DNA from: Sulfurimonas sp.
GTDB lineage: Bacteria > Campylobacterota > Campylobacteria > Campylobacterales > Sulfurimonadaceae
Assembly (NCBI RefSeq): GCF_032250635.1
Contig: NZ_JAVVFL010000001.1
Location: 1 to 37,544, forward strand
Length of the DNA stretch: 37,544 nucleotides
Direction: 5' to 3'
Positions within the stretch are counted from its first letter, which is position 1; every line of letters starts with the position of its first letter. The notes beneath the pieces are model-generated. The model ran no database searches, was not told where the DNA came from, and was given only the letters and a program-made list of their open reading frames with translations. A program made the translations under genes and the position numbers. Of this stretch, positions 10,382 through 37,544 are shown one piece after another.

Positions 10382-10396
10382 CTTCATGTTTCAAAT

Positions 10397-17100: not shown

Positions 17101-20100
17101 ATGTTTTAGGAAGCTCACGAAGTAGTACGCCTGTCATCTCAGGACGGACATAAAAGTTTGAGTATCTGTTGTACTCGTCTGTAAGTATTTCAGCTAAGCC
17201 TTGTTTTTCTATATACTGCATTACTTGTGGAACTAAAACCTCGCTCAAAAGCTTTGTAGCTTCCATGGTCCTTTGGATGTTCTCTTGATCGCTCTCGTCT
17301 TTGCCTTTTGGAGCAAGAGCTTTTTTGTTTAGGTATCTATTGTAAAGCTCTGCTTTCATACCGTCGCCATCAAACACATCGGAGCGAACAAATAGCTCAC
17401 CGCTTTTCTCTGTGCTTATTGCATCGCGAACAGCGTTAGGTAACCAGCTCTCTCCACCCTTAACTGTGATATTTTTAAAAGGTATCTGCTCAGGAACTAT
17501 TGCTTTTAGCTTTATGTACTGCTCGTTGTATTCGTCTATACTAAGTCCATGGTATTTGCGTAGCCCCTCAACAGAATCAAGTTTTGCGTAAACATTGCCG
17601 CTGTAGTACATAAAGTCAAGCTGTATCTCGTTTACTCCGCTGCGAACATAGCTACGATTTTTTACCAACTCTTGCATATCCTCTTTGCTTAAGTAGTCAT
17701 ACTCTTTTGAGGTATCTATGGCTGTGTCGCCAGTGGAATAAAAAAGTGCACGCTCTATTAGTGGAGAGTTTGCATCTACTTCAAGTACGCCACTATCTTT
17801 AAATCTCGTCTGCTCTCCATAGATAGGCGCAGGAGTAAAGTCTTTATCAAAGTAGCTCATAGATTCTTTAAGAGCTATGTCGGAGCGGTGCTCTTTCATA
17901 AACTTTTTAAGTGCTAAGTCGTTATGAGGAGATTTCTCAAACCGTTGCTTGTAGTTTTGTATCTCCGCAAGTGCTGTGTTTATCATTGTTTTGTCTTCAA
18001 GACGAAGACCATCTTCTGTAAGCATTTTTATCTTTTCAAGCAAGAGCGCCTTTTGTGCGTTATCGCCTTTTAGAACTTCTCCAAACATAGCTTTTTTAGA
18101 AGTGTCGCTAAATGAAAGCTCCTGCGCGTAGTAAACCATTTTCCCATCTGCAAACTCGCTGTGAGGTTTAGCTTCGCTTACCAACTTCATCGGGATCTTG
18201 TTTTGTGCTGCATACTCTGTAGCTTCTTCTACGTTTTTAAAACTATGCTGCTCGTCTTGTGTCTTCTTAGCTATTTTATACGGCTCATAACTAATCTTGA
18301 TGTTTTCAAACTTTGGCTCGCCGCGAACTATCCAGCCCTCTTTGCCCATCTTTGTTTTATCGTTTGCTACAACCACTTCATCGCCTAGCAAATTCTCAGG
18401 ATGCTGCAATAGGTATTCGTTCATAGCAAAACCGTCTTTGTTACCAATGTTTACAAACTGATTATTCACATCTTCTTGACGACTCTTTACTCCCTCGGGT
18501 CGTTTTTGGATGAAGATAATATCTATCATGGTATCGGTATGAGCATTTTTAGCTTGTGACTTCTCGGGAAGTCTAAATGCACCTATGATATCGCCTCTGT
18601 CCATTAAATACTTTCTAAGATGTCTCGCTGTAGTTGTTCCATCCATTGTTCCGGTACTTGTCATAAACGCGATAACACCGTTCTCTTTTACTTTATCCAT
18701 AGAGTGAGCAAAGTAAAAGTTATGTATCGCTTTAAACGCAGGTTTGATTGTCATAGCATGCTCACGCATAAGCATCTCTGTACTCGCAAAAGGAACATTA
18801 GAAACTATAAGGTCGTAATTCTTGCCCTCAAAGGTCTCATAAGTGTCTGCAAAGAAGTTTTTGATTTGAGGATAAAGTCTTTTTGTGATTTCAATGTTTG
18901 TCGTATCTATATCCACAACATCCCATGAAGCATTTGGCATAAACCCAACAAAGTTGCCACTGCCAACTGCCGGCTCTAAAATTTTATCCATAGGAACGTC
19001 TGCATCTGCTAAGGCTTTGTAGATTGATTGTACTGTAGCGTAGTTTGTGTAGTGCTGATTTACTGAGTTTTCGTTTGCCTCTCCAAGTCCACCCTCTCCG
19101 GTATAGTGGCGAAGTATCTCTCGGTCTGCTTCTGTAATCTCTTCTAGTGGTTTTTTTATGATTTCGAGCGTAGCGTCATTGAACTTTTTGCGTTGACCTT
19201 TTGTAAGCTCAACTGGAGTTCTCCCCTCTAGTGAATAGCTCTCAGTGCTATTTGGTTCATCAGATCTTGGTAATACTCTGTTTGCATCAGTTGTCTGTTG
19301 CTTAGGTTGTTTATTTCCGCCATCGGTTTTGTATCCGTCCACTCCGCCATATCCATTGGATACTTCATCTTGAGTGCTTCCATTCGTACCAAGTCCGTCA
19401 GGTCGTCTATCGCCCTCTGATACTGACTTGTCACTTCCTTGATTTGTTTTTGTGTCAAGTGTGTTTTGTTTTGAAGTTGGTACTCCAGCTGTATTATTTG
19501 TTCGCTCAACAGTTTGACTGCCTGCGTCATTTCCTCTGTTCTCATTTCCTCTATTCTCCTCTCTCTCAACTATATCCATTATATCACGAACAAACTCAGA
19601 TGAAGTTAGTTTGCTATTTTTTATCCATCTGTTGCTGCCGTCTTTTTTCGTTGCTTTGTTGGTAGTTCTGTAAAGCTGCCCATCAGTAAGGCGCATATCA
19701 TCGCCCATAGTGTACGCATCGTGTATGCCATCTTCTATGAGATCATAACCAAGCGAGACATAAACACCAATATCACTATTTGGCTTATAGAGTTTAAACG
19801 AAACACTGCCACCAGCAGGAGCAAGGTTGTTGCTAACTCCCATATATGAAAGAGGTTTGCCTTTTTTATCTACTGCAACCTCCCATCCACCAAGAGCTTT
19901 TTGCAACTGCTGCACATATTTCGCTACATCTTTTTGAAGCTTCTTTGATACCTCACGACTAGGAATTTCATTCATAATCCCCTTAGTTGTATAAACCTTT
20001 GTCGTGTCAAAGATTATTTTAGCATCGCTGCTTCCGGATACACCTCTATCGTTAGCTCCCTTGCTTTCTCCTGCGTATGTCCCTTTGCTAGTAGGCTCTT

Positions 20101-22918
20101 GTAGAGTGGTATCGCTTTTTGTCTCAGTTGGTAAAGTGCCTGCGTCCGTTTTTGTGTTTGCTGCGGGGTCTCTGTTGTATTTTCCATTTTCCTCTTCCTC
20201 TAAGTATGTGTCTAAAAGTCTTGCAAGAGCTGATGCTTCTTGCTCTTCAAGCTCGTTTAAATTCCAGTTAGCCTGTAGCTCGTTAAATCTTTTGATATCC
20301 TCTGCTAAGTGCGGACTGCCGGCTCTATGCAGCTGCTCCATAACTCTGTCGGAGAGTTCGCTATGCTTGCCATTTTTAGCATTAGTGATAGCGGTAATAA
20401 CATCTTCATATTTTACCACACTATTGACTATACCCTTCGCCCACTCAGGAACGATATACTCTGTGCTTGCAGTTGTATCAAAAAGAGCGTTTCTCGTACC
20501 CTCAAAAGCAAGTGAGTTTTGAGTGCCTTGCTTCGTTTTTGTGGCAGTAGACAAAATGCCGTACGCGCGCGCATACTCATCTTGTACAAAATTGTCATAC
20601 TGTGATGCTGCATATTCAGGAGAATTATCAAGCACTCCCAAGTCTGCTTTGAGTTTAGCAAGCAACTCTGTGTCTATCTCCCCTTTTCCAAGTCTTGTGA
20701 TATCACTCTTGGTAAGTAGAAAATCTGCTCTGTAGTTTCGCTCATACTGCGCCTTGTCATAAGTATTTTTATCAGTACCGCCATGCCCATCAAGTTCTCT
20801 TCCTGCACCAGCCTGTACAAGGTTGTTTACACTTGCCGCATCTTTGGCATAAATATCTTTGCGCATATCAAGAAGCGATTTATAACGAGGGTGATTTTGT
20901 AGCTCTGTAAATTCTGTATCTTGCGCCTCTTTTGTCTCCACGACATTGATGTCGTTAACATCCGCTTTCGCCTCCGGCTCAGGCTCTCCGATAACAGGCT
21001 TTTCGATTACGGGTGCGGGAGTTGATGTTGCTGTTTCATTCACACTTGCACTCAAATCCTCAAGTTCAAACTTCTCATCTTGCGTAAGTTCATCATCCGT
21101 TTTTTCTTGCAACTCTTGAAGTCGTGCCGTATCTACCGTTGGTGCATCCGCAAACCCTTTAGGCTTCAACTCCTCATCCACTTGTAAAGGATTACTTGAC
21201 AACTCGGCTCTAAGCTCATTCCAGCCTGTATCTATTGCGTTGAGTCCGTTATTGTCACTCACGTTTAAGCCATTGGCTTTAGCATCTGCTACTATCTGCT
21301 CTTGCATCTCAACACTATCAACAGCTTCAACAGGCACGACTTGCTCAGGATGATTGATGACTAAATTTTGAAACTCATCTTGAATAGTTTTTACTTTACC
21401 ACGCAGATCGTTTGAAAAGTTTATATACCCTGCATCGTCAACGGTAGTAACTAGCCCACTGCCCAATACCTGCTTATTATAAGCATCTTGCACATACGCC
21501 TCACGCGCTTTTTCTTGCTTCGCCTGCGATAGAGTGTTAAATATTTCTGTTCCTGTAGCGGTTGCGCCACTTATTCCGGCACCGGCACCAGAGCCTGCCA
21601 CAAATCCGGCAAGAGCATCGTCCGCGTACTCTGCTGGACTGCTTAGTCCTTTTTCCGTACCTACCTCTTCGCCAAACTTCTCTATAGGATTTTGTAGAGA
21701 TTCAGTAGTTCCCTCTACTACAAATCCTTTTTGCATTTGTTTACCTACGGTAGTTATTGCGTCTTTGAGCGAACCATCAAGCGCATCTTTTCCTACACTC
21801 TTGACAACATCTTCCGTTGTTGCCTTAAGACCAAGCCTATCAAGGATTATACTTCCCATGGTTGTTGGTGCAGTCATAAGGTAATCGTTTGCCGTTGGCT
21901 CTTTGCGGTTGTTATTTTCTGCTCTGTGCTCTGCACTCTCTTGTTGTCTCGCTGCATAGTAAAGAGGCATTGCCGCTACCATCTCTGCCATATCAGGAGC
22001 GCTTACCACACCCTCGCTTCCAATATAGTTGCCTAGCTCTTGCCAAGCATCTACATCAAACACTCCGCCGCTGCTAAATCCTTTTTTTACCTCTTCCCAG
22101 CTATGTGTAGGCTTTTGAACTATGGATCCATCGTGTAGTTCCATCTTGTTTTTTTCATACACGAAATCATTAAGCTTATCACTTGCATTTTTAAACCAAT
22201 CCGCGCGCTTTTTATTTTGTGCATCCAGCGCCTCAGTGGTTATGCCGAGGTACTCCATGGGTGTCTTTATATTTCCAAGTAGATTGTATGTGCCTTGAAT
22301 CGCATTTGCAGTAAGCTCGTTCACGCGGTTTACGACTCTTTTGCCAAGCTCCCATTCGCTAGCTTCTGGATTGACATAGTCTTGATTTTCGCCCATAGAG
22401 ATAGTTCTTTTGTTTGCCTCTATGGTTTGGGCATCTTGCTCAGCAGGCGAAATCATTCTTGCAGGTGTGTCGTTAAATATTTCAACAGCAGTTCGCATTG
22501 CAGGCTTAAACTCTCTCGTAGCGGTTACATCATCAGTTTGCACGATATCTGATGTGAGAGCATCTATCATAAAAGGCTTTTCAGCAGTAGCGGCTTTTGT
22601 CTGTATCGGGAGAGAACCGTCTCTGTTTGGTGCAACTGCATTATGTAGGGCAGGGTCGGTTACATCAGTATCCTCTTTGTATACAGGAGCAAACGCGCGC
22701 TCTATTGCAGATACTCCTTTGTCAAGGGTGTCGCTAACATCAAAGTCAAGCTGTGCATTTACAAAGTTCTCTTTAATGCGTGTCTGCTCTTGAGCATCAA
22801 GCGCTAAAAACTCAGCATCTGCCATTTCTGTATCGAAGTAGTTTGTAGTAATTGTCTGTTTTTTGGAGAGGTCAAGCGATTGAAAATCTTTATCAGAGAA
22901 GATGTCTATCTGTTTCAA
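11153..22918 (-). CDS. giant polyvalent virion/ejection protein: N6-adenine MTase + SNF2-like helicase (DarB-like) + HExxH zincin-like motif + LPD38-like C-terminus
   Basis: 3921 aa. MTase motifs ILEPAVGSGNF (~18950-18980) and IVSNVPF (~18790); helicase motifs APGGGKT (~17000), DEVQ (~16490), LTGTP and EQRSNRGVRQGN; HEMAH (~14180); KIPRPYDIG and NKNWTGGDIVP near the end; Gly/Ala-rich hydrophobic segment near the N-terminus. Confidence 0.88.
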   Translation of the reverse strand: MKQIDIFSDKDFQSLDLSKKQTITTNYFDTEMADAEFLALDAQEQTRIKENFVNAQLDFDVSDTLDKGVSAIERAFAPVYKEDTDVTDPALHNAVAPNRDGSLPIQTKAATAEKPFMIDALTSDIVQTDDVTATREFKPAMRTAVEIFNDTPARMISPAEQDAQTIEANKRTISMGENQDYVNPEASEWELGKRVVNRVNELTANAIQGTYNLLGNIKTPMEYLGITTEALDAQNKKRADWFKNASDKLNDFVYEKNKMELHDGSIVQKPTHSWEEVKKGFSSGGVFDVDAWQELGNYIGSEGVVSAPDMAEMVAAMPLYYAARQQESAEHRAENNNRKEPTANDYLMTAPTTMGSIILDRLGLKATTEDVVKSVGKDALDGSLKDAITTVGKQMQKGFVVEGTTESLQNPIEKFGEEVGTEKGLSSPAEYADDALAGFVAGSGAGAGISGATATGTEIFNTLSQAKQEKAREAYVQDAYNKQVLGSGLVTTVDDAGYINFSNDLRGKVKTIQDEFQNLVINHPEQVVPVEAVDSVEMQEQIVADAKANGLNVSDNNGLNAIDTGWNELRAELSSNPLQVDEELKPKGFADAPTVDTARLQELQEKTDDELTQDEKFELEDLSASVNETATSTPAPVIEKPVIGEPEPEAKADVNDINVVETKEAQDTEFTELQNHPRYKSLLDMRKDIYAKDAASVNNLVQAGAGRELDGHGGTDKNTYDKAQYERNYRADFLLTKSDITRLGKGEIDTELLAKLKADLGVLDNSPEYAASQYDNFVQDEYARAYGILSTATKTKQGTQNSLAFEGTRNALFDTTASTEYIVPEWAKGIVNSVVKYEDVITAITNAKNGKHSELSDRVMEQLHRAGSPHLAEDIKRFNELQANWNLNELEEQEASALARLLDTYLEEEENGKYNRDPAANTKTDAGTLPTETKSDTTLQEPTSKGTYAGESKGANDRGVSGSSDAKIIFDTTKVYTTKGIMNEIPSREVSKKLQKDVAKYVQQLQKALGGWEVAVDKKGKPLSYMGVSNNLAPAGGSVSFKLYKPNSDIGVYVSLGYDLIEDGIHDAYTMGDDMRLTDGQLYRTTNKATKKDGSNRWIKNSKLTSSEFVRDIMDIVEREENRGNENRGNDAGSQTVERTNNTAGVPTSKQNTLDTKTNQGSDKSVSEGDRRPDGLGTNGSTQDEVSNGYGGVDGYKTDGGNKQPKQQTTDANRVLPRSDEPNSTESYSLEGRTPVELTKGQRKKFNDATLEIIKKPLEEITEADREILRHYTGEGGLGEANENSVNQHYTNYATVQSIYKALADADVPMDKILEPAVGSGNFVGFMPNASWDVVDIDTTNIEITKRLYPQIKNFFADTYETFEGKNYDLIVSNVPFASTEMLMREHAMTIKPAFKAIHNFYFAHSMDKVKENGVIAFMTSTGTMDGTTTARHLRKYLMDRGDIIGAFRLPEKSQAKNAHTDTMIDIIFIQKRPEGVKSRQEDVNNQFVNIGNKDGFAMNEYLLQHPENLLGDEVVVANDKTKMGKEGWIVRGEPKFENIKISYEPYKIAKKTQDEQHSFKNVEEATEYAAQNKIPMKLVSEAKPHSEFADGKMVYYAQELSFSDTSKKAMFGEVLKGDNAQKALLLEKIKMLTEDGLRLEDKTMINTALAEIQNYKQRFEKSPHNDLALKKFMKEHRSDIALKESMSYFDKDFTPAPIYGEQTRFKDSGVLEVDANSPLIERALFYSTGDTAIDTSKEYDYLSKEDMQELVKNRSYVRSGVNEIQLDFMYYSGNVYAKLDSVEGLRKYHGLSIDEYNEQYIKLKAIVPEQIPFKNITVKGGESWLPNAVRDAISTEKSGELFVRSDVFDGDGMKAELYNRYLNKKALAPKGKDESDQENIQRTMEATKLLSEVLVPQVMQYIEKQGLAEILTDEYNRYSNFYVRPEMTGVLLRELPKTFRDKSFAMQSHQLQGAEKLVFNKKGVLAFAPGGGKTITAIVAVMNLIGQGVMKKPLFVVPVNTIAQWENSVKELYPHAAVFEFPKVKSGVNKGNAKEWTQLSREEKEQMAFDLANNRYDFTIIGDTMFQKFGLPSDVMSEYVDDLVEQIQAIEEVEAGDTKSKKKGVSAEAKKRALKNGLKQAYGSDVEFDFAKMGFDGLIADEVQYYKNIGLGGKDIKGGLGASVVMSYSDKNGKALTAKDILEGAEPHSATLGSMRSYDFRFKSKYVSQNNNGNNVILLTGTPTPNKPLELYTLLQHLDESILYEYGIVSSRDFVDTFYDIEELETTDSAGKIVKREALASMKNLDWMGKILDRFVDYKGFKDMPELPRPKQVDVQHYLKLSSAGEKIFQDVQHRILAAMEDAKKIKSGLLDSSEVEIALVAMGAGRSASIDLRLYDVGTKGKSQFTPDDLFDVIDNDIATSENNKILKTIELITNQYKENSNSGQIIFLDRLSVKNSDGSVTSTHAETREKILATGLFDEKEVVFVNGAAFVNPTTGKVSKSSIKPDMLNKIMDMYNNGDIKVIIGNTSKLGVGVDLNRKTTDIYQLDIPFRPDEIEQRSNRGVRQGNENTEVRVHQFFQLGTFDKRSYDIVMKKRGFNDMYKFSENEDLVVVDGVSIIDNSNTTDPYQAVIDLERDPFERERLRKQRVIENAVVDANNLKNIITKLDADIKTKQGSIKNYSDAIKGADENLMPQNFPKYEGIKDEAEKKEKLDKHIQGLVERKAKYENTIQGIEVEIAEIEAKANERKEQKASHEAETKFITDEFTNDGKNVSIDKIKTAYTLEQILKSEGKSAAEIESYLADREPETISYSKKPTPKEQKQIEETNFYARANGYDEAGINYVPNYSVSGIPSRPLSDTITLNKREVKLPAADKPINADSLRIYVSDIIGNRLYDGKIKGKSALGIYKRKDSSIRLKNYSDVEIMAHEMAHYLDFFHNNKSKDAKDSFFRSIILKNKEEVKALSYTTDPKKVINEGFAEFVRLWLTNYNTLTLVAPNMVKDFEARLAKDKNLQAKMEMLQIGMHQFYYQGAAATLRSKQGGELNSTAKKIQRSQAEISKDIRQAAIDKVHSIKRIEAAIRGDVATDAIESPYKILQLAEHASSLMHTAMHFGVPSVKANGDITYSGKALNDIFAPATKVSEERVRLLSDYLVAMRASELKGQGRENLITEQEIDAGLLLAQKYPEFETIFNEYQEFNDAMLDFYVGMNLITPEQKANFQEMNKNYVPFHRVTESVQNGAVPPAKIGQRLTGGTHSLGNIMENIIGGIESNIKQALISRGKSVFFKMLDDSDMGGVFATKVSAENKLVKSDIAQQAKKVAQLMAQLGITVAKDGMILSGDINADIIIDVNEIEQNLIDNPSALEFWTHGHKPTSQTGYIETVIINGKKIYFEVHDAALVDSLTSFGSANYNELVQYLMSAKNVMTWNITNNPLFYGTNFVRDTVSASVLSKNKFIPVVTSVRGMYHFVMKTDVYKNFMASGGGYGTRRTTLGGDVDAMGMLEVNRGFEVINKLLSAMAYGADTFEYGTRIGEFLLATNSGKSNMQAAFEGNEVSTDFTIKGSNRTWTGFLATVPFMKAGINGMDKTARRIFSLNGEMKLSNAVKFKNQLGELQAHKLRLYAAGGLISVITLALWSANRDDERYKKLTRDSKLMYWHFFIGDQHIKIPRPYDIGFAFATMPEIVADGIYTKHGKEAAADFVWGIKTMFSIGDVSGLFQPILEDMTNKNWTGGDIVPSYLENIDDKSDQYMNFTPLLYKKAGELTGASPILMQHYIDGYLGLTAKMVEETTENMLWNEKDWGARPFARNALEFLTYRFRGKEVETRTAYSEKYYELMRKAGGVKASFEAKKKKAFIDGGKNITEYMSADEKKAYVQVSRLMARYASKLTNIKNRVEHITYDKKLSKAEKEKRINAAYEKRTEIFKGVSETLEKELKKFEGK
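19228..19545 (-). CDS. putative nested (+1 frame) 105-aa helical protein inside the giant gene
   Basis: AGGAG 10 nt before ATG 19545; MRTEEMTQAVKLLSEQIIQLEYQLQ...YYQDLMNQIALRAIH; co-extensive with a low-complexity linker of the main frame. Confidence 0.6.
   Translation of the reverse strand: MRTEEMTQAVKLLSEQIIQLEYQLQNKTHLTQKQIKEVTSQYQRAIDDLTDLVRMEALKMKYPMDMAEWTDTKPMAEINNLSNRQLMQTEYYQDLMNQIALRAIH
20014..20187 (-). CDS. putative nested (+1 frame) 57-aa protein inside the giant gene
   Basis: Not in the ORF track. GAGGAAGAGGAAA-ATG start; MENTTETPQQTQKRTQALYQLRQKAIPLYKSLLAKGHTQEKARELTIEVYPEAAMLK*. Confidence 0.55.
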   Translation of the reverse strand: MENTTETPQQTQKRTQALYQLRQKAIPLYKSLLAKGHTQEKARELTIEVYPEAAMLK

Positions 22919-22996: not shown

Positions 22997-23920
22997 TTAT
23001 TTTTCGTAATCTTTCCAACTTTTCGCAGTCTTAGGCGCATCGCTTTCTTTTCTTTTTGCGTAGGCATCTTTAGTCTGTTTTCGTATAGACGCCAAGTCTT
23101 TAACGCCATTGTTTAAAAGGCTTGTTCCGTTCTCCAGAGCAAAGGCTGCTTCCTCTTTGCGCTCTGGGTCGATAGTAAACTGCCCTGTAACTTCATCATA
23201 CTCGCCGTACTCTTTGCCTATTGAGTTTTGCAGATCAAGGAGGTCTTTATTTAGTTTTCCTCCATTTGCACTTTCTGCTTTATAGAGCGCTGTTGCATGT
23301 TTGACATCTTTCTCTTTCGCCGCTAAGCTTGCCGCCGTTGTGTCTTTGTCTGTGAAGTATTTATCAAGCTCCATTATCGTCTTGCCATCTGCCATCTTGA
23401 TAAGCTGCTCGTTCTCTTTTGCAAAAGTATTAAAATCTTTATACTCTTTGCCAACTGCAACATTTTTAGCCTCATCGTTAAACTTACCTTGGAAGTGTGT
23501 ATCTGCGGCTTTAACTGCATCATCAGATATATTGCCATAGCCATTCCCAGTACGGTAGTTGTCTTTAAATAGCTTTAGATTTTCAGCACCGTCTACGCTT
23601 CTGTATGAGTTACTAAACGCATCATCGAGCTTCTTTGTCTCTCTCGTCTGTTTTGTCTCATCTATTGTATCAAGTGCTGCTATATTTTGTGTACCGTAGA
23701 GTTCTGTTTTTGCGGCTTCAGTTTTAAGCCTTGCTTCATCAGCAGCCATCTGTGACTTTTGCGCGTTGATGGTTGCATCTCTCTTCTCTCTATCGTCCAT
23801 GTTTTTGCCAATACTCACAAAGGCATCGCCAAAAGCTTTCGCGCCAAGTCCGGCATCACTTCCGACACCGCTCATATTCACACCCGCTGCATTACCCCGA
23901 AAACTGTCATACCATCCCAT
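22997..23920 (-). CDS. putative internal virion/ejection protein
   Basis: Gly/Ala-rich N-terminus followed by charged helical sequence; lies between the portal and the giant protein. Confidence 0.55.
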   Translation of the reverse strand: MGWYDSFRGNAAGVNMSGVGSDAGLGAKAFGDAFVSIGKNMDDREKRDATINAQKSQMAADEARLKTEAAKTELYGTQNIAALDTIDETKQTRETKKLDDAFSNSYRSVDGAENLKLFKDNYRTGNGYGNISDDAVKAADTHFQGKFNDEAKNVAVGKEYKDFNTFAKENEQLIKMADGKTIMELDKYFTDKDTTAASLAAKEKDVKHATALYKAESANGGKLNKDLLDLQNSIGKEYGEYDEVTGQFTIDPERKEEAAFALENGTSLLNNGVKDLASIRKQTKDAYAKRKESDAPKTAKSWKDYEK

Positions 23921-25791
23921 TATCCTATCCTCCTCATTGCATCAAGCTGGTTTTTGTCATGCTTTGCTTTTACTGTCTCTTTTTGAACGAGAGAATTACT
24001 AAAAGCTTTTTGTAAATCTATCTGGTTTCTGTCAAGCATCGCTTTTGCTTTTGTGTTGTTCAGATTTGCTTGTGACTGTTTTACCATCATATTAAGCTTT
24101 TCATTTTCCGCTTGAAGCTGTGCGTTTTGCTGCGCCTGTGGAGAGTTTTGAGACTGCGTGTCTCTCTGCTCGATTATCTCTCTTATCTTCTTTGCAGATG
24201 GAGAGTCGCTATCTTTTAGTATATCTGGTATGAGATACTTTACAAGCTCAGGGTCGGTACTTTGTAGCACTTTGAGAAGCTCTACATTTTGGCGTAAACG
24301 CTCACTGCTCATAGAGTTTGACTTTGGCTTTGCTGTAAAAATCAAGTCATATTTACCCACGCTAATAGCATTTGAGACTATAGGTTTTACTTTTCCATCC
24401 GCCAACACTTCAAGCTCTACACCGCCGTTGTCGTTTAAAATCGCTTCATTCATTGTGATGTAGTCTTGTATATAATCTTCATCGACTATGCTTACGACTC
24501 TTTGCGTATCATAATACTGCTCTATAAATTTAACGCTCTTTTTAATGATCTTCTTTTGCAGGTTATCACTAGAATTCATAAAGCGGCTAAGCCCGACAAG
24601 CCCTGTTTGGACTCTCTGCTCTTGCCCGACTGCACTCATGCGATTGTTTGCGGTTCCGAGCATCTCTTTGTTTGAGTTGAGAAGTTCGCTTATCTGCTGT
24701 CGTCCATCAATGATGATGCCTAGTATCTGCTGTATCTGTACATTTTGCTTAATATCTTTTACACCATTAATATCTTCAACCATAACTGTAGCATTGTCAA
24801 GACTATACTCAGAGTTAAACGCTTCCATGTCTCCATCTATCAGCGCTCCACGGTTTATGAGCGTCTTGTTGTTTGCCATCATATTTTGCAAGCGTAACTT
24901 TGCATAGTTTATGTGGTCTTGTATAGGCATGATGTCTCTGTACAATCCCCAGTATTTTATTTTGCCTAAGAAATCACGGCTTAAAAACTCCACTTCATAA
25001 GGAAATCCATCAAAATCATAAGGAGACTCTCCTTGTAAAAGTATCGTTACATCGCTCCAAAAACAGTAGTAGAACTTATCTTTTTTTGTAGCCTCGTCAT
25101 ATTTTCTATACCAAGTGTAACTAAGCAGAACTCTTTTGCGTATCGTCTCATCTGCCCACATGTCATCTTCTACTATGTCCGCAACATAGTTTATGTTTGT
25201 GACCTCATTTATCTTCTTCTCATCGAACCCAAGCCCGAGCAAATCCTCTGTATCTATCCAAAAACATCTATGAATATAGCGCGCATCATGATTGTAGTTT
25301 TTCGCGCGGGAAAATGGGTCAAGATAACATTCGTTTGATGGCACTTGCTTTATCTCTATATCTTTATGCTCACGCCCAAACTCATCAAATTCTCCGCTTG
25401 CATTTATGGTAAGCTCTGCAATGGCTACGCCCTCAAGACTTAGCTCATCATCAAGCGCATCTATCTCTACCTCATAGTCGCTCACTTGAGTAATTGCTTT
25501 GAGCAGCGCATTGAGCATCTCTGCCCCGACTCTATCTCTTTGCTGTCGTCCAAAGAGACGAATATCTATTTGCCTCTCTTTTTTAAATCCAAGTATTGCG
25601 TTGTTGTGTTTTGCAATATTATTTTCGTACTGCTCAGGCTGTCCGCGATTTGCGAGTATCTGCTTGATGGTTCTATCAAGTTGATCGCCATTGTAGTACT
25701 CTCTTACTTTTTTACTAAACTCTTTTGTTTTTTTAAAATGGCGCGAGGATTCCTTTAGCCATTCGGTAAGTATAAAAGTATCTTTAAACAT
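23920..25791 (-). CDS. portal protein (P22/N4-like podovirus type)
   Basis: 623 aa; YYNGDQL...RGQP...NNIAKHNNAILG, YLDPFSR, GKYDL and a Gln-rich C-terminal barrel-like coil. Confidence 0.85.
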   Translation of the reverse strand: MFKDTFILTEWLKESSRHFKKTKEFSKKVREYYNGDQLDRTIKQILANRGQPEQYENNIAKHNNAILGFKKERQIDIRLFGRQQRDRVGAEMLNALLKAITQVSDYEVEIDALDDELSLEGVAIAELTINASGEFDEFGREHKDIEIKQVPSNECYLDPFSRAKNYNHDARYIHRCFWIDTEDLLGLGFDEKKINEVTNINYVADIVEDDMWADETIRKRVLLSYTWYRKYDEATKKDKFYYCFWSDVTILLQGESPYDFDGFPYEVEFLSRDFLGKIKYWGLYRDIMPIQDHINYAKLRLQNMMANNKTLINRGALIDGDMEAFNSEYSLDNATVMVEDINGVKDIKQNVQIQQILGIIIDGRQQISELLNSNKEMLGTANNRMSAVGQEQRVQTGLVGLSRFMNSSDNLQKKIIKKSVKFIEQYYDTQRVVSIVDEDYIQDYITMNEAILNDNGGVELEVLADGKVKPIVSNAISVGKYDLIFTAKPKSNSMSSERLRQNVELLKVLQSTDPELVKYLIPDILKDSDSPSAKKIREIIEQRDTQSQNSPQAQQNAQLQAENEKLNMMVKQSQANLNNTKAKAMLDRNQIDLQKAFSNSLVQKETVKAKHDKNQLDAMRRIG

Positions 25792-27543: not shown

Positions 27544-28707
27544 CTATATGCCAGTTGAAGCAACAACAGCGATAACGCCATAGTCATTGCCATCAAAAAT
27601 ACTGTCTTTTAAAACGCCATCGTTCGCACTAGCCTCATACTTTGTCTTAGCAAAGCCATACACTCTGTCAATTCCAGCGTTCATACGTCTAGGGTCAGAT
27701 TTATCTACCCAATCATAATAGGCAACGCCTTGGTCAACAACGATATAACCGGCACCGGCACCAACTAAAAGATTTATCTCAGTCTCTTGGTCTGCAACAC
27801 CGCCCTTGTAAATGCCTAAGTCACTTGTCTTAACATTTCCAAAACCTACAAACTTAGAGCTTGAAGTAAGCACGCCCGACTGTCTTGCCGTATCTGTTTT
27901 AACGTCAAGTAAAAGTACGCCATCCCAAAAACCTAAAGCACCACTAAAGATAGGGTTTGATTTTCCACGTTCTAGCGCATCTTTTCTTGCAGCTTCCCAG
28001 TTTGGATCTGTCTTGATGTTTCTTGCCGAGTTTGTACCAACGAACATTACAAAATACTCAACTTCATCATAGTAGCCCATGTTCTCATTCTGAGTTGTTT
28101 TAACAGGGATAAGTGGAGGAACGCTCTCGCCCGCTGCATTTAATCCAAGAAGTGCGCGTCTCTTTGCCTCTTCAACATCTGTAGTTGTAAGCACATCTGC
28201 CTTAACCAAGTTTGCAGTAGTTGCATCAGCAGGGTGTCCACAAACAACAATATTGGTACAATCAGCGCTAAACGCACTAAATACAATCTTGTCGAACTTC
28301 ATAGTTCCCCAGTTGCTTAGTGAATCTTTTGAGCGAGACTTAAATGAGTCTGCATTTCTCTGATTGACTATACTCTGAGTTGATGGAACCGCATGTTGAA
28401 ATCTATCAATCTTGATAAATTGCTTGATGTTTTTAAGCTCTTCTCCACTTGCAGAAAAGTCAACATTGCCGACTGCTCCACTCTCGATGAGAGCATCTTC
28501 CATCTCAACGCCTACAATACTGCCGTGTTCGAGTGTCTTAAGAACACTTCTAATAATGCTTGTTGCATCGTTTTCGCTTGATGCGATAAACGGCTTCATC
28601 TTACTCTTTTTAGTAACCTCTTTGGTTACCGCCTTACTATACGCTACTCTTGTGTCAGCATCAGATAAAAAATCTCCCGCAGACAAACCACCAAAAACTT
28701 CTGCCAT
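27544..28707 (-). CDS. major capsid protein, N4-gp56/DUF4043 family
   Basis: IDRFQHAV, WEAARKDALERGKSNPIFSGALGFWDGV and C-terminal DYGVIAV; AAGGA RBS. Confidence 0.85.
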   Translation of the reverse strand: MAEVFGGLSAGDFLSDADTRVAYSKAVTKEVTKKSKMKPFIASSENDATSIIRSVLKTLEHGSIVGVEMEDALIESGAVGNVDFSASGEELKNIKQFIKIDRFQHAVPSTQSIVNQRNADSFKSRSKDSLSNWGTMKFDKIVFSAFSADCTNIVVCGHPADATTANLVKADVLTTTDVEEAKRRALLGLNAAGESVPPLIPVKTTQNENMGYYDEVEYFVMFVGTNSARNIKTDPNWEAARKDALERGKSNPIFSGALGFWDGVLLLDVKTDTARQSGVLTSSSKFVGFGNVKTSDLGIYKGGVADQETEINLLVGAGAGYIVVDQGVAYYDWVDKSDPRRMNAGIDRVYGFAKTKYEASANDGVLKDSIFDGNDYGVIAVVASTGI

Positions 28708-31016: not shown

Positions 31017-31808
31017 TTACAACTTAGTTATTGTAGTAGATGTAGGAACAGTGGCATTCGTATTAAGCGCATTTATCATAGCAAATAGAGTGGTCCACAT
31101 ATCAGAACTAATAACCAATCCGCCGGCTCCCATTGTTCCAACCATATCTGCATAGCTGTCAAGCGCTTTAATGTTGTTATTAAACTCAACAGAGCGTCCA
31201 AGCTCAAGTGTCTGTTTCTCAACAAAGAGCGTGTCTACGATAAGCTTTAAAGCCTGCTTGTCAAGTAGAACTCCCTGCTTTGTTTTGTTGATGATGTCAG
31301 CCGCAGAGTTTGCATTTCGCACTGCTGTTGTAGAGACAATATCAAGCGCTTTTTTAAGCTCGGTGGCTTGTTGCGCAGTAAGCATGCTGATTTGCTCATC
31401 TTTAAGAAGTAAATCTTTTGCATTCTGCAAGTCTCTCACCGTTGTAGTAGAAACAATATCAAGCGCTTTTTTAAGCTCGGTGGCTTGTTGCGCAGTAAGC
31501 ATGCTGATTTGCTCATCTTTAAGAAGTAAATCTTTTGCATTCTGCAAGTCTCTCACCGTTGTAGTAGAAACAATATCAAGCGCTTTTTTAAGCTCGGTGG
31601 CTATTTGTGCCTGAACTAGTGCATTTGCGTTAATTGCCTGATATGCGCGTACGCTGTTTTCCATTGATGATTTTATTATCTCTGACATTATTGCAGAGAA
31701 GTGCTCATCCTCCATCTGCATTGATGCCTGTGTGTCATTAAGCTCTTTTAGGCTTTTACTTAAGAAAGTATCATAAATTGTTGATAGGTCTTCTGTATCT
31801 ATTGCCAT
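31017..31808 (-). CDS. helical phage structural protein with a 39-aa tandem repeat
   Basis: 263 aa; ATELKKALDIVSTTTVRDLQNAKDLLLKDEQISMLTAQQ occurs twice, plus a partial third copy. Confidence 0.65.
   Translation of the reverse strand: MAIDTEDLSTIYDTFLSKSLKELNDTQASMQMEDEHFSAIMSEIIKSSMENSVRAYQAINANALVQAQIATELKKALDIVSTTTVRDLQNAKDLLLKDEQISMLTAQQATELKKALDIVSTTTVRDLQNAKDLLLKDEQISMLTAQQATELKKALDIVSTTAVRNANSAADIINKTKQGVLLDKQALKLIVDTLFVEKQTLELGRSVEFNNNIKALDSYADMVGTMGAGGLVISSDMWTTLFAMINALNTNATVPTSTTITKL
31336..31602. repeat. 117-bp perfect tandem repeat, about 2.3 copies
   Basis: Units start at 31336, 31453 and 31570; the first two are identical at the nucleotide level. Confidence 0.95.
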
Positions 31809-32243: not shown

Positions 32244-32636
32244 CTACCCCCTCATCATCTGCGATAACTTCATCGCTCTATTTGGAGTTTGCTCCGCCCA
32301 TCTGCTGTCTAGCATCTGAACGCTTGCCGCTTCGTAGTCAAACTCTTTTAAAGCAGCCCACATCTTCTTAAACTTTAAAACTCCGTTCACTCCCATCTGA
32401 TAACACATCTCCGCAAGTATCTCCTGCTTTTCAAGAGGGAGTTTGTTTACAAACGGCTCTTTTGTTTCAAGCTCTTTTATCTTCGCTTTGAGGCGATACT
32501 CTAAGATAAGCGCCGCCTCTTCTTTGACAAGAGGCAGTTTTGTGCCATAGCCTATAGTGTCAAAGCCGAGAGTGTCTTTGTAAACAGTTCCGACAAACCC
32601 CTCATTTTTCATAATCTCTTCAATAAGCTTTTTCAT
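32244..32636 (-). CDS. endolysin, T4-like phage lysozyme
   Basis: Catalytic E-x8-D-x5-T pattern (NEGFVGTVYKDTLGFDTIGYG) and MLDSRWAEQTPNRA. Confidence 0.92.
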   Translation of the reverse strand: MKKLIEEIMKNEGFVGTVYKDTLGFDTIGYGTKLPLVKEEAALILEYRLKAKIKELETKEPFVNKLPLEKQEILAEMCYQMGVNGVLKFKKMWAALKEFDYEAASVQMLDSRWAEQTPNRAMKLSQMMRG

Positions 32637-32881
32637 TTACACCCCTCTATTGATTTTCTAAGTTCCATGATGCACTTAAGCGATTGGTCTTGCTTCTCTA
32701 TCGGTGTGCCTCTCAACTCTCCGCACTTTACCTCTTCTGTTTTGCATGGAGCATAAACAGGGTATGGAGTAGGCTTGTCTATGTAGACCTTTGTCTCTAT
32801 GGGCGTACACTCTTGCTTATTACTGCATGCTGTCAAGGCTAAAGCCATCAAGGCTATCAAAGTAAGTTTTAATATCTTCAC
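32633..32881 (-). CDS. o-spanin (Rz1-like lipoprotein)
   Basis: GTG start with AGGAG RBS, lipobox LALTAC, Pro/Cys-rich; overlaps the 3' end of the i-spanin gene. Confidence 0.75.
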   Translation of the reverse strand: MKILKLTLIALMALALTACSNKQECTPIETKVYIDKPTPYPVYAPCKTEEVKCGELRGTPIEKQDQSLKCIMELRKSIEGCK

Positions 32882-33248
32882 AATTGCTCCTATATATGAT
32901 TGTTTGAGACGGTAGATGTCTCTCTATGTTTTGGTACTTCTTTGCATCAGCGCGCCATTTTGTAAGTTCTTTTTGAGATTGCTTGTACTTCTCACCGTGC
33001 AGTTCTATAGTGCGCGACTGTTCTAAGAGCGCGGCTTGATATCGCTCTGACTCTAGTTGCGTGGTTAACATCTTCTTTTGCGCATCTTCCATTTTTCTCT
33101 CAAGCTGCGAGATACTTACATCTCTTGAACTGATCTCATCTTTGAGCGACTCCATGTGTGCGTAACACTTGTAGCCGACTCCCGCAAGTGCCGCCGCTAC
33201 GATTAGCAGCGCATATATTCTCATCGCTATTATTGACATACTATCCAT
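32820..33248 (-). CDS. i-spanin (Rz-like)
   Basis: N-terminal TM helix, long coiled coil and a late Cys. Confidence 0.72.
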   Translation of the reverse strand: MDSMSIIAMRIYALLIVAAALAGVGYKCYAHMESLKDEISSRDVSISQLERKMEDAQKKMLTTQLESERYQAALLEQSRTIELHGEKYKQSQKELTKWRADAKKYQNIERHLPSQTIIYRSNCEDIKTYFDSLDGFSLDSMQ

Positions 33249-33720
33249 CCTCGCTGTATCGTATAAGTACGTTTCGTATTCGCTTGCCTATCATCGCCAC
33301 AACGTCATACTCAGGCAGTTCATCTTTTGTGCGTATGCTGTAAATGTTTCCTATGATTGAGTAGATCTCGCTTAACACAAGTATGTTTATCCCAACCATC
33401 AAAACGGTTTTGAAGTCTGCTCCAACCGCTTTCGCCCCGATAGCCAAAACTATAGGTATAAGAAGCAGCGAAAGCTTAGAGAGTACGCCGTACTTCATCT
33501 TGTTACTCGTTATGCTGTGTCCTAGTCTGTAGGCTTTTGCTACTCCTGTAGTGTAGTCTATGATGAGCAGCACACTAAAGAGAAAGAACGACTCGCCGCT
33601 TAAACCTAAGTACGTTAGCATTCCACCTAGGCACACCGTAAAAAAATTGAACACGACCTTTGCATACACGCTCGCCGTTACACTCTCTGCTATCATCTCA
33701 CTCTCCCAAACTTTTTTCAC
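33241..33720 (-). CDS. phage holin (toxin secretion/phage lysis holin family)
   Basis: LLIIDYTTGVAKA...SNKMKYGVLSK...SEIYSIIGN motifs and about 3 TM helices. Confidence 0.85.
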   Translation of the reverse strand: MKKVWESEMIAESVTASVYAKVVFNFFTVCLGGMLTYLGLSGESFFLFSVLLIIDYTTGVAKAYRLGHSITSNKMKYGVLSKLSLLLIPIVLAIGAKAVGADFKTVLMVGINILVLSEIYSIIGNIYSIRTKDELPEYDVVAMIGKRIRNVLIRYSEDG

Positions 33721-33955: not shown

Positions 33956-34375
33956 CTACACAAAGAAGCTGTTGCGCTTCTCTACAAACCACATGGCAAA
34001 TGCCGCGAACTCTGTTGATGCTATTGGCATTATGGTTCCGTTTGTAAAGTGAATATTTGTGCTTAAGACACCCATATCAAACGCGGCTTTTACCTGCAGC
34101 AATCCGTCCGCATCATCTTTCATAAAAGGAACCTGATACTCAACTCCGCCTAGTGTGTATAGCTCGCCGTTGGTTTTATGGTCGGCTATTGCCTTTGCTG
34201 TTTGTGCATCAGCAAGTTCATTCTGCTGTGCAGCAATCGCCAACTCTACCGCCGCCGCTGCAACTACGCTCTTGTTGCTCAAAAGCACATAGTTATCTCC
34301 GCTCATCACAACCGGCTCTCCAAGTTGCTCACTTAAAATGTCCACTAAAGGACGTGCTGTAATCTCATCTTGCAT
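33956..34375 (-). CDS. putative tail-fibre assembly/accessory protein (DUF4376-like)
   Basis: 139 aa; AGGAG RBS lies inside the RT 3' end; YTLGGVEYQV...TNIHFTNGT...EFAAFAMWFVEKRNSFF. Confidence 0.5.
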   Translation of the reverse strand: MQDEITARPLVDILSEQLGEPVVMSGDNYVLLSNKSVVAAAAVELAIAAQQNELADAQTAKAIADHKTNGELYTLGGVEYQVPFMKDDADGLLQVKAAFDMGVLSTNIHFTNGTIMPIASTEFAAFAMWFVEKRNSFFV

Positions 34376-35358
34376 GTGTGTAATTCTCCTCTTAGTAAAT
34401 TTAGCAAGTTGTAGCTATCCGCTTTTATAGCGTGTCCGAGCCAGCTGCCTAAAAACTTAAAAAGCTTTGCGAATAGCTCTAACTTCAAAAACTTCTTTAT
34501 AGCTCTTCTTGCTCTAGTAACACTCGCTTTGCGAAGTAGTTTAAACCCGGACTTTATCCTCATACCCAAAAAGTTTATAAACTGAACGTCCGCTTTTTGG
34601 ATGAACCATTTAGAAAATTTCAACTTCATAAAAATAGCTATGAACTTCTCTAAAATCTTTTGTACTCTCACTAGATACTCTTTGCTATGACTAAATATCA
34701 AAGTGTCGTCCATATATCTGTAGTAGTACTTTACGCCAAGCTTTACTTTTATAAACGTGTCAAACACATGACCGTAGAGATTTGCAAACAGTTGACTGAG
34801 CAAGTTGCCTATCATAATCCCCTGAGCGCATATAAACTTAAAAATGAGTCTTAAAGACTTTTTGTCAGTTATCTTTTTTTCCACTTTCTCTTTGAGCAGT
34901 TTGGAATTGACACTGTGAAAATAGCCTTTAAAATCCATCTTCAAAAAGTAAACCTCGCCTTGCTTCTTCATCTTTCTTAGCTGAGATTGAACCTTGTTTA
35001 TGCCTTTGTGCGTGCCTTTGTCTTTTCTGCAAGCATACGAAGTGCTGTAAAATGTCTTCTCAAAGATAGGCTCTATCACATTGTTTATAGCGTGTTGTGC
35101 CACTCTGTCGCGAAATGGCAAGCTGTTTATGATGCGCGTTTTAGGCTCATGAACAGTAAAGTTAAAATACTTGCCGATGTTATATGTCTCTTTTATCATC
35201 TGTTGTTGCAAGATGTATAGATTTGCCTCTAAATTTTCTTTAAATATCAAGTGACCGTTTGAGTATCTATTTCCACCTCTTGTGGCTTTTTTATAGGCAT
35301 CTCTTAAGTTGTCGATATCTACGATTTTATGAAACAAGTTTCTGTACTTTTTGCCCAC
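34345..35358 (-). CDS. brt: DGR reverse transcriptase
   Basis: GTG start; MGKKYRNLF N-terminus resembling Bordetella Brt; EPKTRII..LPFRDRVAQHA, SYACRKDKGTH, KMDFKGYFHSV, GIMIGNLLSQLFANLY, YRYMDD and NFLG motifs. No intron maturase/endonuclease extension. Confidence 0.95.
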   Translation of the reverse strand: MGKKYRNLFHKIVDIDNLRDAYKKATRGGNRYSNGHLIFKENLEANLYILQQQMIKETYNIGKYFNFTVHEPKTRIINSLPFRDRVAQHAINNVIEPIFEKTFYSTSYACRKDKGTHKGINKVQSQLRKMKKQGEVYFLKMDFKGYFHSVNSKLLKEKVEKKITDKKSLRLIFKFICAQGIMIGNLLSQLFANLYGHVFDTFIKVKLGVKYYYRYMDDTLIFSHSKEYLVRVQKILEKFIAIFMKLKFSKWFIQKADVQFINFLGMRIKSGFKLLRKASVTRARRAIKKFLKLELFAKLFKFLGSWLGHAIKADSYNLLNLLRGELHTCKMRLQHVL

Positions 35359-35522
35359 AACTCTTACCTTTTTTATGTTTTTGCTGTCTTCTAGTTTCGA
35401 TGTTTCACTACTCTTAGTTTTACAGACCCATTACTTTGTTTGCATTACGCAGGACAGATAAGCTGACTATCTTTAGTCGCACTACACAACCCTTAAGTTG
35501 CATAAGTGTTATAAGTAAATAC

Positions 35523-35638
35523 TCACAAGCGAAACGAGAACCAATATTCCAATTCGAATTCCAAACATAGTTGTTCCAATTCGAGGCGCGCGAACCGGCA
35601 TTGACGCCATTCGTGCGATTCCCGCCCAATATCACCGC
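35523..35638 (-). repeat. DGR template repeat (TR)
   Basis: 116 bp with nine AAY codons and 24 adenines; aligns without gaps to 36016-36131. Confidence 0.96.
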
Positions 35639-35642
35639 TTTC

Positions 35643-35978
35643 TTACCTGCCCTTTATCATGGCACCAACTATCTTTCCGACCTCTGCCAGAAGGATAGAA
35701 GCTACTTGATGTTGTTTTGGACTTACAAGCTTGCGCTTCTCACTCGCTAAAAATCGCAAGTGATAACGAACCAGTGCCAAGTTAGCGTCCGCTTCATAGA
35801 GCTTGCTAACGTGATTTGACTTTACAGCCTTGTAAAACAGCTCAACTTGTAAAAACACAAGCTGGATTGTCTTCTCTTTGAGTATGCCGTGCTTGCGCGG
35901 TATGTTTTGCAACACTGGGTAGATGTAGTTGACAAACTCATCATACTTCTCTACCACCACTAAGCTACTCATGCACAC
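35643..35978 (-). CDS. avd: DGR accessory variability determinant
   Basis: VEKYDEFVNYIYPVLQNIPRKHG...QVELFYKAVKSNHVSKLYEADANLALVRYHLRFLA...LLAEVGKIVG closely follows BPP-1 Avd as I recall it. The real start is probably ATG at 35972. Confidence 0.93.
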   Translation of the reverse strand: MCMSSLVVVEKYDEFVNYIYPVLQNIPRKHGILKEKTIQLVFLQVELFYKAVKSNHVSKLYEADANLALVRYHLRFLASEKRKLVSPKQHQVASILLAEVGKIVGAMIKGR

Positions 35979-35996
35979 TCCGTTCGCTTCCGCTCA

Positions 35997-37544
35997 CTAC
36001 GCATGTTCCAAGGAGTCACAAGCGAAACGAGAACCAATCTGCCAACTCGAATACCAAACATAGCTGCTCCAATGCGAGGCGCGCGAACCGGCAGTGACGC
36101 CACTCGTGCGAATCCCGCCCAATAACACCGCAACAGGAGCATTTGATGTTGCATAAATCTGCCCTCTTGCATCCGCATTGTCCATATACGCAAAAGTAGT
36201 AGTTCCGTATCCGTTTGCTAGGTCGGCTCCCCAAATATGCTCCGTACCTGTCGCCATCTCAATGCCATATTTAGACATAAGCTCTGGGATGTGGAAGATT
36301 GTTCCGTTGTCTCCATAAGCAGACGAAGAAACACCCTCAAGAACGCCATACGCAATAGTAGGAAACTCGTTGTAGCTTATGTTTTGGTTACCTGTTGCAG
36401 TTGCCACCTCACACGCTTGAAACCAAGTGTATTTACCGTAAGTAACAGTACCATCTCCACCGTATGCTAGAGGTATCTTTGGTATCTGTCTAAAGTACGT
36501 TGCATCTGCCACGCCTCCCGCTATGTTTGCACCTGTATGAACCGTAGGAGCTGAGTAGCCTCTTATGCCGTAGTCTCTATCCATAAGGTAGATGTCATAC
36601 CAACGTGAACCTACTTTTGCTTTACCGCGAGGGTCTGGGCAGATAGGTCTATCCCATAGCGTCCATATAGAGTATTCATTGATACCTCTAAGCTTTACCA
36701 TATCTGCTTCTGTTTTGTTACCTGTCGGAGCTTCTGCATGAGGCACTAAGGAATAGTGAAAACCTCCTATGGTATCTGCTTGAACTGTTGTTGTAATCGC
36801 TGTTTTGCTAAAGTAGTAGTCAAACCCAGCCGTAGGAGTTACATATAGGCTCATTTCAAGAGAGTTACCGTCCACTACTATTGTAGTTACCCCTGTTTTG
36901 GTAGGTAGTGCGATACCTCTTGCCGTAGCTGTGAGAATAATATTTGCCATGCCATCAAAAGAAGCGCTCCCTGCAACCTCTCCGGCTAGAGTTATAGTTC
37001 TTGCCGTTGCAAGTTTTGAAGCCGACACCGCATTTGCCGTAGCGTCTAGTTTTGCATTAAGCGCAGTCTGTTGAGCCGTACTTACAGGCTTGTCCGCGTC
37101 ACTCGTGTTGTCAACACTTCCAAGCCCCACTTGCGCTTTAGTTACAGTGTGAGGATTGTCGGTTCTGTTTGTGTGTGCGAGCAAGTCCACCATGTAGACA
37201 TCGCTGTCAAGTCCGTTGTAGATAGTGAAGTCGCTCGTTGTTGTGTCTGTAAAAGTGATACGGTAAGTATCCGTAGCTCCGCTTTGCGCCGCAAACCCGC
37301 TCGCATCTGTGGTACCTATGAAGTTTACGCTTGCAATGCCGTTTCCAGTCGCTCCCGTATCTCCTTTGTCTCCCTTTCCAAAAGGAGAACCAAGAGACCA
37401 GTCTGCCTCGGTTGCACTAAGCTTGAAGTAGATAAGCGCTTCGTCAAGTGCCAAAAAGCTAAAGCCTGTTGTTTGCAGATCATAAAGTGACTTTTGTGAG
37501 AGCAGTCCGACTGCATTAACCGTAAAGTTGTCTCCCTTGTCTCC
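35997..37544 (-). CDS. tail fibre with C-terminal Mtd-like (C-type-lectin fold) DGR target domain; 5' end outside the window
   Basis: The frame is open to the window edge (GDKGDNFTVNAVG...). It has collagen-like GxxGxx stretches, NPHTVTKAQVGLGSVDNTSD and ASKLATARTITL fibre motifs, and ends LLGG..GSRASHW...IGSRFACD. Confidence 0.92.
   Translation of the reverse strand, partial: GDKGDNFTVNAVGLLSQKSLYDLQTTGFSFLALDEALIYFKLSATEADWSLGSPFGKGDKGDTGATGNGIASVNFIGTTDASGFAAQSGATDTYRITFTDTTTSDFTIYNGLDSDVYMVDLLAHTNRTDNPHTVTKAQVGLGSVDNTSDADKPVSTAQQTALNAKLDATANAVSASKLATARTITLAGEVAGSASFDGMANIILTATARGIALPTKTGVTTIVVDGNSLEMSLYVTPTAGFDYYFSKTAITTTVQADTIGGFHYSLVPHAEAPTGNKTEADMVKLRGINEYSIWTLWDRPICPDPRGKAKVGSRWYDIYLMDRDYGIRGYSAPTVHTGANIAGGVADATYFRQIPKIPLAYGGDGTVTYGKYTWFQACEVATATGNQNISYNEFPTIAYGVLEGVSSSAYGDNGTIFHIPELMSKYGIEMATGTEHIWGADLANGYGTTTFAYMDNADARGQIYATSNAPVAVLLGGIRTSGVTAGSRASHWSSYVWYSSWQIGSRFACDSLEHA
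36016..36131 (-). repeat. DGR variable repeat (VR)
   Basis: 3' end of the fibre gene; 11 mismatches against TR, 10 of them at TR adenines. Confidence 0.96.

Follow-up and report, generated by a model that had tools for sequence, protein, structure and literature searches.

The diversity-generating retroelement (DGR) of phage BPP-1, ordered mtd-avd-TR-brt, is the closest described relative of the element analyzed here, which lies in a 37,544-nt stretch of Sulfurimonas sp. DNA (NZ_JAVVFL010000001.1, positions 1 to 37,544; the beginning of scaffold C235, hereafter the window). BPP-1-type targets are reported to carry perfect, GC-rich stems of 7-10 bp with GRNA loops, which arise in supercoiled DNA and for which both strands are able to fold (PMC3240598), and myDGR describes a perfect-stem rule (PMC6602519). 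The target hairpin is an efficiency element that is not strictly required, retrohoming is favored when the strand complementary to the complementary DNA (cDNA) serves as lagging-strand template, and the entry of DGR cDNA into the target is still incompletely understood (PMC12875486). Phage DGRs with two targets are covered in PMC10743442, and distal second targets in non-structural regions, of unknown function, have been published (PMC8008677, PMC12629997). By its own account, the survey in PMC8144416 would miss remote targets.

The window contains an intact BPP-1-type DGR in a Sulfurimonas-like prophage. We think it probable, with some reserve, that its single template repeat (TR) has overwritten two variable repeats (VRs), one in the tip of the predicted tail fiber (T1) and one in a distant, likely non-virion early gene with an Mtd fold (T2), and that both are likely recognized through a hairpin that is predicted to fold on the sense strand only. 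The DGR core and the fiber target are in themselves ordinary. A preliminary description of the window had singled out the host lineage and the capsid type, which are of modest interest only, given that reverse transcriptase (RT) matches at E<=1e-20 occur in 14/300 other genomes of the family (three of the 14 above 50% identity). The remote second target and the mismatched target hairpin, both outside that description, are the more interesting features.

The cassette and its fiber target

TR (35523-35638, minus strand; 24 adenines, nine AAY codons) and VR1, in frame at the 3' end of T1 (36016-36131, minus strand), align without gaps over 116 nt. Ten of the 11 mismatches fall at TR adenines (hypergeometric p = 2.3e-7). 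Each of the nine AAY codons differs between TR and VR1, and the sole change at another base sits in AAT>CAG. This reproduces exactly the alignment and the ten codon changes of the preliminary description. Its figure of 4^24 possible sequences holds for nucleotide strings but not for protein diversity, for which the 23 in-frame TR adenines give a stop-free ceiling of 1.2e13. TR/VR identity stops at one common base for VR1 and VR2, and the VR tails are unlike the TR tail, which is what tells the initiation of mutagenic homology (IMH) site from IMH*. The 3' tract of TR and VR contains no pure (GC)14 stretch.

The RT gene (34345-35358, minus strand) is an open frame of 337 aa with YMDD intact at residues 215-218. 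Its best PDB match is BPP-1 bRT (E 3e-68, 42% identity), and in a tree of 48 rows, made by a quick search and rooted at the midpoint, it falls in a clade of eight rows whose sister is BPP-1 bRT (SH-aLRT 99). The avd frame (35643-35978, minus strand; translation may truly begin at an ATG two codons further in) is open as well, scoring 118 bits against PF22296 (cut-off 40) and 95 against NF033474 (cut-off 80), with bAvd as best PDB match (E 1e-29). Between TR and RT, the spacer (35383-35508, minus strand) is a full-length match to Rfam family RF03022, Phage_DGR (71.5 bits, gathering threshold 50). The order target-avd-TR-RT, together with the spacing, mirrors BPP-1. The earlier assignments of uninterrupted, BPP-1-like RT and Avd, of gene order and of a tail-fiber target stand. 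A scan of a collection of genome contigs with this RT gave distant DGRs only, at 29-51% identity over the best segments.

T1 is the 3' part of a fused tail-fiber/Mtd gene (35997-37544, minus strand, continuing to C235:38758). Its C-terminal 320 residues match Mtd, the best PDB match (E 7e-27). The window end cuts the gene at a 100-N scaffold gap, and the 55-nt overlap across this gap means that the fiber gene most likely runs on to C235:38758, giving 868 aa if the overlap is real; for this reason a broken T1 gene was rejected. By homology with BPP-1, RT and Avd would copy TR RNA with errors at adenines, the cDNA would replace the VR, and the resulting T1 variants may alter receptor binding and so switch tropism.

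Decay of such cassettes is common among related phages. In L190, L193, L194, L196, L198, L203, L207 and L228, an Mtd-type fiber with its VR is kept, while avd, TR or RT are no longer adjacent or the RT is split.

A second target remote from the cassette

A search for additional VRs had been proposed in the preliminary description, and we scanned the whole assembly (286 contigs) with the 92 non-A positions of TR. One more repeat was found: VR2, on contig C190 (9342-9457), matches at 89 of the 92 positions, and the next-best genome site reaches 47, so that no VR beyond VR1 and VR2 appears in this assembly. VR2 differs from TR at 12 positions, nine of them adenines, and forms the end of an open reading frame of 279 aa, T2. 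The T2 protein has the Mtd second and lectin domains without a fiber, collagen or Mtd_N segment. In its AlphaFold2 (AF2) model, the VR segment (residues 236-279) has pLDDT<50 and is unreliable there.

Both targets are, by sequence comparison, serviced by one TR. In the six phages that have TR, VR1 and VR2, the non-A mismatches over 107 nt between VR2 and the TR of the same phage number 2, 0, 0, 0, 0 and 6, and those to the TRs of other phages 10-31, save for one near-identical pair; in that pair, a 2-nt TR difference is mirrored in both VRs. The phage with six mismatches has a split RT and is decaying. In one relative population, comparing three contigs with a fourth gives 8-10 differing positions in VR1 and 0-4 in the 900 nt upstream. 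Public contigs at ~85-95% identity have TR adenines at 20 of the 28 VR variable positions among those listed, with strain differences mixed in; as TR, VR1 and VR2 are mixed among these strains, we use this variation solely as evidence that other samples contain VR2 flanks. Repeated retrohoming would be expected to give just such a pattern, a separate T2 lineage whose VR2 tracks the resident TR. Adenine-focused VR variation is seen in sequences of relatives, and retrohoming activity in this genome is putative.

T2 forms a separate conserved orthologous clade in sequence comparisons. In a tree with the VR removed, eight T2 and 15 T1 rows are split by a branch with support 100/98. Among the best 120 of 130 homologous matches, 89 have 46-87% identity and the remainder 40% or less. 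T2-type matches occur in 4/352 other genomes of the family (49-61% identity), and a search of 400 genomes of the phylum gave T1-like matches only, in two. The T2 protein search of viral contigs gave no match, though a DNA pattern search there did. One homologue of 61% identity, P0043, is labelled Aliarcobacter butzleri by its source, and with this label the T2 family reaches beyond Sulfurimonadaceae-like hosts.

Gene context, fusions and the absence of collagen suggest that T2 is likely a non-virion, early protein. It is preceded by repressor, resolvase-like, parA and parB genes and followed by a primase gene. If the join between C235 and C190 holds, T2 and the structural genes are on opposite strands, and ~16 kb separate T2 from the fiber. 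In 8/8 contexts examined, with neighbors named by family matches or by BLAST to this prophage, T2 sits among replication, regulatory or small early genes. Collagen repeats were found in 0/90 T2-type proteins, one of which has a borderline hydrophobic N-terminus. Among 19 long homologues scanned for N-terminal fusions, PF18909 was present in two and a DUF6378 match below cut-off in one.

A different explanation, which we consider rather unlikely, accepts the DGR and both VRs and makes T2 a second virion receptor-binding protein, as alternative tip or head decoration, that lies among early genes by chance. T2 has the Mtd second and lectin domains, and its only fold match is Mtd, which belongs to the virion; its sole PHROG match is a tail family; in two relatives (L195, G700) it is on the fiber strand, three genes upstream of the fiber; and an Mtd-like role is supposed for short second targets in PMC10743442 (section 9). 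These points weigh against a non-virion T2. Against a virion role stand the lack of fiber, collagen and Mtd_N segments, the position on the opposite strand and far from the fiber (if the join holds), the shifts between early loci across podovirus-like and baseplate-bearing phages, and the fusions to nucleotide-enzyme-type domains in homologues. If T2 is an early non-virion protein, it might be a cytoplasmic binder used in phage-host conflict, whose diversification would be directed at a partner that changes within the cell, most likely a protein of host defense or of a rival phage. This role, suggested by context and fusions, is the least certain of our proposals.

Some further observations concern T2 and its surroundings. 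Small N-terminal domains differ among homologues P0106, P0115, P0112, P0068 and P0084 (PF18909 in two, DUF6378-like in one, unnamed and of ~95 aa in two), and 17/90 homologues translate through the hairpin as a short C-terminal peptide. A promoter scan around T2 stayed at chance level. Just downstream of T2, the assembly branches (C190:10070-10517): C20 joins at 10124 and C190 extends for 393 nt, which suggests two prophage haplotypes or an insertion. At C190:4832-6947, the integrated prophage has parA and parB together with a second tyrosine recombinase; G227 has a related pair close to T2, and a plasmid-like state is possible.

The mismatched target hairpin

A 16-nt hairpin follows VR1 (35982-35997, minus strand), 18 nt past the end of TR/VR identity, and a motif match gives the same hairpin after VR2 (C190:9476-9491, plus strand). 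It consists of two Watson-Crick pairs, a tandem G·A/A·G mismatch, two more Watson-Crick pairs and a GGAA loop, and its offset from the end of identity is 18-19 nt. The strict motif, GA opposite GA with a GRNA loop, is present after 21/29 distinct VRs, where the loops are GGAA or GAAA; among the other eight, one has a broken pair, three an insertion and four no hairpin. It was found after 0/12 TRs, the TR of the window included.

The four Watson-Crick pairs covary around an invariant tandem mismatch. For the alignment of 18 rows, we excluded four near-copies from the same population, three insertion variants and four VRs without hairpin. In the 14 distinct rows, 96.4% of cells are paired and double-sided changes occur in 4/4 pairs; 0/500 shuffles reach this score, and slid controls pair at 2-50%. 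The four G·A/A·G columns are invariant and unpaired in 14/14 rows.

Compared with the perfect-stem definition (GC-rich stem of 7-10 bp, GRNA loop, 4-34 nt after the VR), loop and position fit and the stem, with four Watson-Crick pairs and a tandem G·A, does not. Since the hairpin is an efficiency element rather than a strict requirement, the imperfect stem marks a variant and does not exclude the cassette from DGRs. We also surveyed 111 distinct sequences that follow VRs in retrieved RT loci, some of them false or duplicate pairs; ten had a G·A hairpin and 16 a perfect stem of at least 6 bp, the latter including BPP-1 and 6/7 other named phages. Of the ten, five are from DGRs that belong to the same host family but are more distant, and one is from a viral contig, with GATA, GACA or GGTA loops. 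On the RT tree, the trait needs at least three changes. The survey is biased toward this host family, the only one from which family-level genomes were sampled in depth. An association of the G·A hairpin with host lineage was set aside in view of this bias, the number of changes, two DGRs of the same family with plain stems and author-assigned labels.

Two other ideas about the element were dropped. Functional co-loss of hairpin and avd was suggested by the lack of the hairpin at 4/4 VRs without avd behind them; as the hairpin abuts avd, joint loss may be passive, and three loci that have lost RT keep the hairpin. For a likeness to primosome-assembly sites and REP-type hairpins, no support was found. 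Many DGR targets of gut Clostridia (L001-L074) have another conserved motif in common, directly behind the VR, with neither a perfect stem of at least 6 bp nor a G·A hairpin within 60 nt.

The arrangement of the mismatches bears on the strand that is recognized. Sheared G·A pairs are available to the sense strand alone, as the antisense strand would oppose TC to TC. The 8-nt core of the VR1 and VR2 hairpins is listed as a DNA mini-hairpin with a Tm of 71.0 C (PMC13037366, Table 1), a class whose stability is missed by standard models (PMC13037366), and tandem GA-AG stacking is strongly stabilizing, unusually so, in DNA (PMC8163305). As the cDNA is antisense, we infer that the lagging-strand template favored in retrohoming is the sense strand. 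Taken together, the strand limit of sheared pairs, the mini-hairpin listing and the lagging-template bias lead us to treat the element as a single-stranded sense-DNA hairpin. The hairpin is predicted to fold on the sense strand alone, which would favor single-strand recognition over a symmetric cruciform. Such a sheared-G·A mini-hairpin could form when the sense strand is single-stranded, as lagging-strand template or in a transcription bubble, and might hold open or mark the strand to which the antisense cDNA pairs.

RNA folding parameters raise a second alternative, in which the hairpin acts in the target mRNA, for example as a tetraloop/tandem-GA protein-binding or translational element, and not as single-stranded DNA. 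They fold the sense strand in 4/4 tests, 1.7-3.0 kcal/mol better than the antisense strand, whereas Vienna DNA parameters give the full hairpin in 1/4 sense-strand tests, which makes an mRNA role conceivable. GGAA, GAAA and GTAA loops also fit GNRA, two rows contain a T·G pair, and at VR1 the element lies just before the avd start. Even so, we regard this explanation as unlikely: the distance of 18-19 nt to the VR is fixed at both targets despite different downstream genes, the same stem recurs in another RT lineage with GATA, GACA and GGTA loops (GRNA/GNNA, not GNRA), and the BPP-1 element at a like offset (19) forms in supercoiled DNA (PMC3240598).

Several points weigh against our overall interpretation of one template, two targets and a sense-strand DNA hairpin. 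The hairpin rows are kin, and the structure was fixed by eye from those same rows. The strict motif occurs at six other sites in the genome, where about two are expected in all. The DNA and RNA folding results given above do not favor DNA, and with DNA parameters the strand asymmetry is small. The join between C235 and C190 is inferred, since the two share no sequence overlap. The non-A mismatches, three in VR2 and one in VR1, are slightly above those of most relatives, and no public sequencing run from the sample of this genome was found (none contained half of the query words). Dormancy of the cassette in this genome, with the VRs as relics and the hairpin mismatches as drift from a once-perfect stem, would be in keeping with these mismatches, with several relatives without RT/TR or with a split RT and with the missing reads, but we hold it to be quite improbable, because all coding and RNA parts are uninterrupted, relatives vary far more inside VR1 than outside it, and invariant mismatch columns beside four Watson-Crick pairs that change in compensated fashion are not a product of drift.

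A wider version of the same interpretation is possible but on balance doubtful. In at least two RT lineages, phage DGRs of Campylobacterota may have given up the symmetric cruciform for a DNA hairpin with sheared G·A pairs that is specific to one strand, with retrohoming reading the sense single strand, and a dedicated clade of hypervariable, cytoplasmic early proteins with the Mtd fold may provide evolvable anti-defense binders.

Prophage setting and comparison with known systems

The preliminary description placed the cassette in a Campylobacterota prophage. In agreement with this, the host RsmH clusters at 90% with a Sulfurimonas sp. protein, and att sites were found. The host CAT tRNA is split: its 5' half (10259-10301, plus strand) has at its end the 11-nt att core (attL, 10291-10301), with which the prophage starts. 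The core and the 3' half lie beside the integrase on C20 (570-628; core 618-628, minus strand), and joining the halves of C235 and C20 gives a complete CAT tRNA. The prophage end holds a complete CAT-anticodon tRNA (10397-10473, plus strand), likely a replacement for the split host gene. The split is in the anticodon arm, and the phage copy, ~95 nt inside attL, is complete and slightly divergent, where usually a 3' fragment alone is carried. Close to each end of the prophage stands an identical copy of a 27-nt sequence that contains an internal repeat (10359-10385; C20:732-758), a candidate integrase arm-binding site.

Past T1, C235 continues with TerL and closes with the C-terminal part of a DnaB helicase, and C190 opens with the N-terminal part. 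A relative has a single DnaB of 455 aa that matches both pieces, gene order is continuous through the junction in two relatives, and C190 and C20 share a 55-nt overlap. The split DnaB, the gene order of the relatives and the att sites that close the element point to C235 and C190 as parts of one prophage of ~47 kb plus the gap.

The structural genes include a P22-like portal (23920-25791, minus strand) and a major capsid protein (27544-28707, minus strand). The N4-gp56-type capsid named earlier is backed by PF13252, above its cut-off, and not by TIGR04387 (46.2 bits, cut-off 60). The lysis region (32244-33720, minus strand) comprises a lysozyme (32244-32636), small lipoprotein-like and coiled genes, and a holin (33241-33720). 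A DarB-like protein of 3921 aa (11153-22918, minus strand) with methylase, SNF2 helicase and LPD38 parts makes up a quarter of the prophage and is possibly an injected anti-restriction protein. Within an unannotated gene of 263 aa, a 117-nt tandem repeat is present in ~2.5 copies (31317-31610).

In literature searches, with limited coverage of subscription papers, figures and supplements, neither a target hairpin with G·A mismatches nor a DGR in a Sulfurimonas or Campylobacterota phage was found described; either may still be in print. The hairpin is apparently an undescribed variant, which the perfect-stem rule of myDGR (PMC6602519) would miss. The second-target arrangement is known but unexplained, and the present data document it well in a host phylum new for it. 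With ~90 homologues, the T2 clade offers a model from an environmental rather than a gut setting for studying the binding partners of distal second targets.

The BPP-1 DGR shares with this locus the gene order, the RT (42% identity, sister clade), bAvd, the Mtd second and lectin domains, RF03022, an AAY-rich TR and a GRNA-loop hairpin ~18-19 nt past TR/VR identity. It differs in its target of 381 aa, whereas T1 is fused to a fiber (~868 aa), and in its eight perfect stem pairs, which stand against 2+2 Watson-Crick pairs around a tandem G·A here. In addition, the Sulfurimonas element has a second target, and its tract ahead of the 3' end lacks A without consisting of G and C alone. The perfect inverted repeat of BPP-1 folds on either strand and so cannot tell which strand matters; a covarying hairpin predicted to fold on the sense strand only provides a direct means to test cruciform against single-strand recognition.

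Quimbyvirus (PMC8008677) and four gut prophage species (PMC12629997) likewise combine one TR with a structural VR and a distal, opposite-strand C-type-lectin VR outside the structural module. The neighbors there form methyltransferase islands, in contrast to the replication, partition and primase genes around T2; the present host is an environmental member of the Campylobacterota, the fold is of Mtd type, and the second target is one orthologous clade with a VR that follows its own TR. Target2 of nd4/nd12 (PMC10743442) is similar in being a short second target without beta-prism, and one such protein has a DUF3310-like N-terminal motif that echoes the small-domain fusions of T2 homologues; these are DUF6273-type lectins without the Mtd beta-sandwich, and they lie inside the cassette. 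For the hairpin, the nearest parallels are GCGNNAGC DNA mini-hairpins and tandem sheared G·A pairs (PMC13037366, PMC8163305). Among the stable variants listed there is the loop-closing core of both hairpins, and the stem has the 5'-GA/GA tandem, but those are biophysical motifs with no DGR link stated in the available text; folding of the 16-mer after VR1 and VR2 is predicted.

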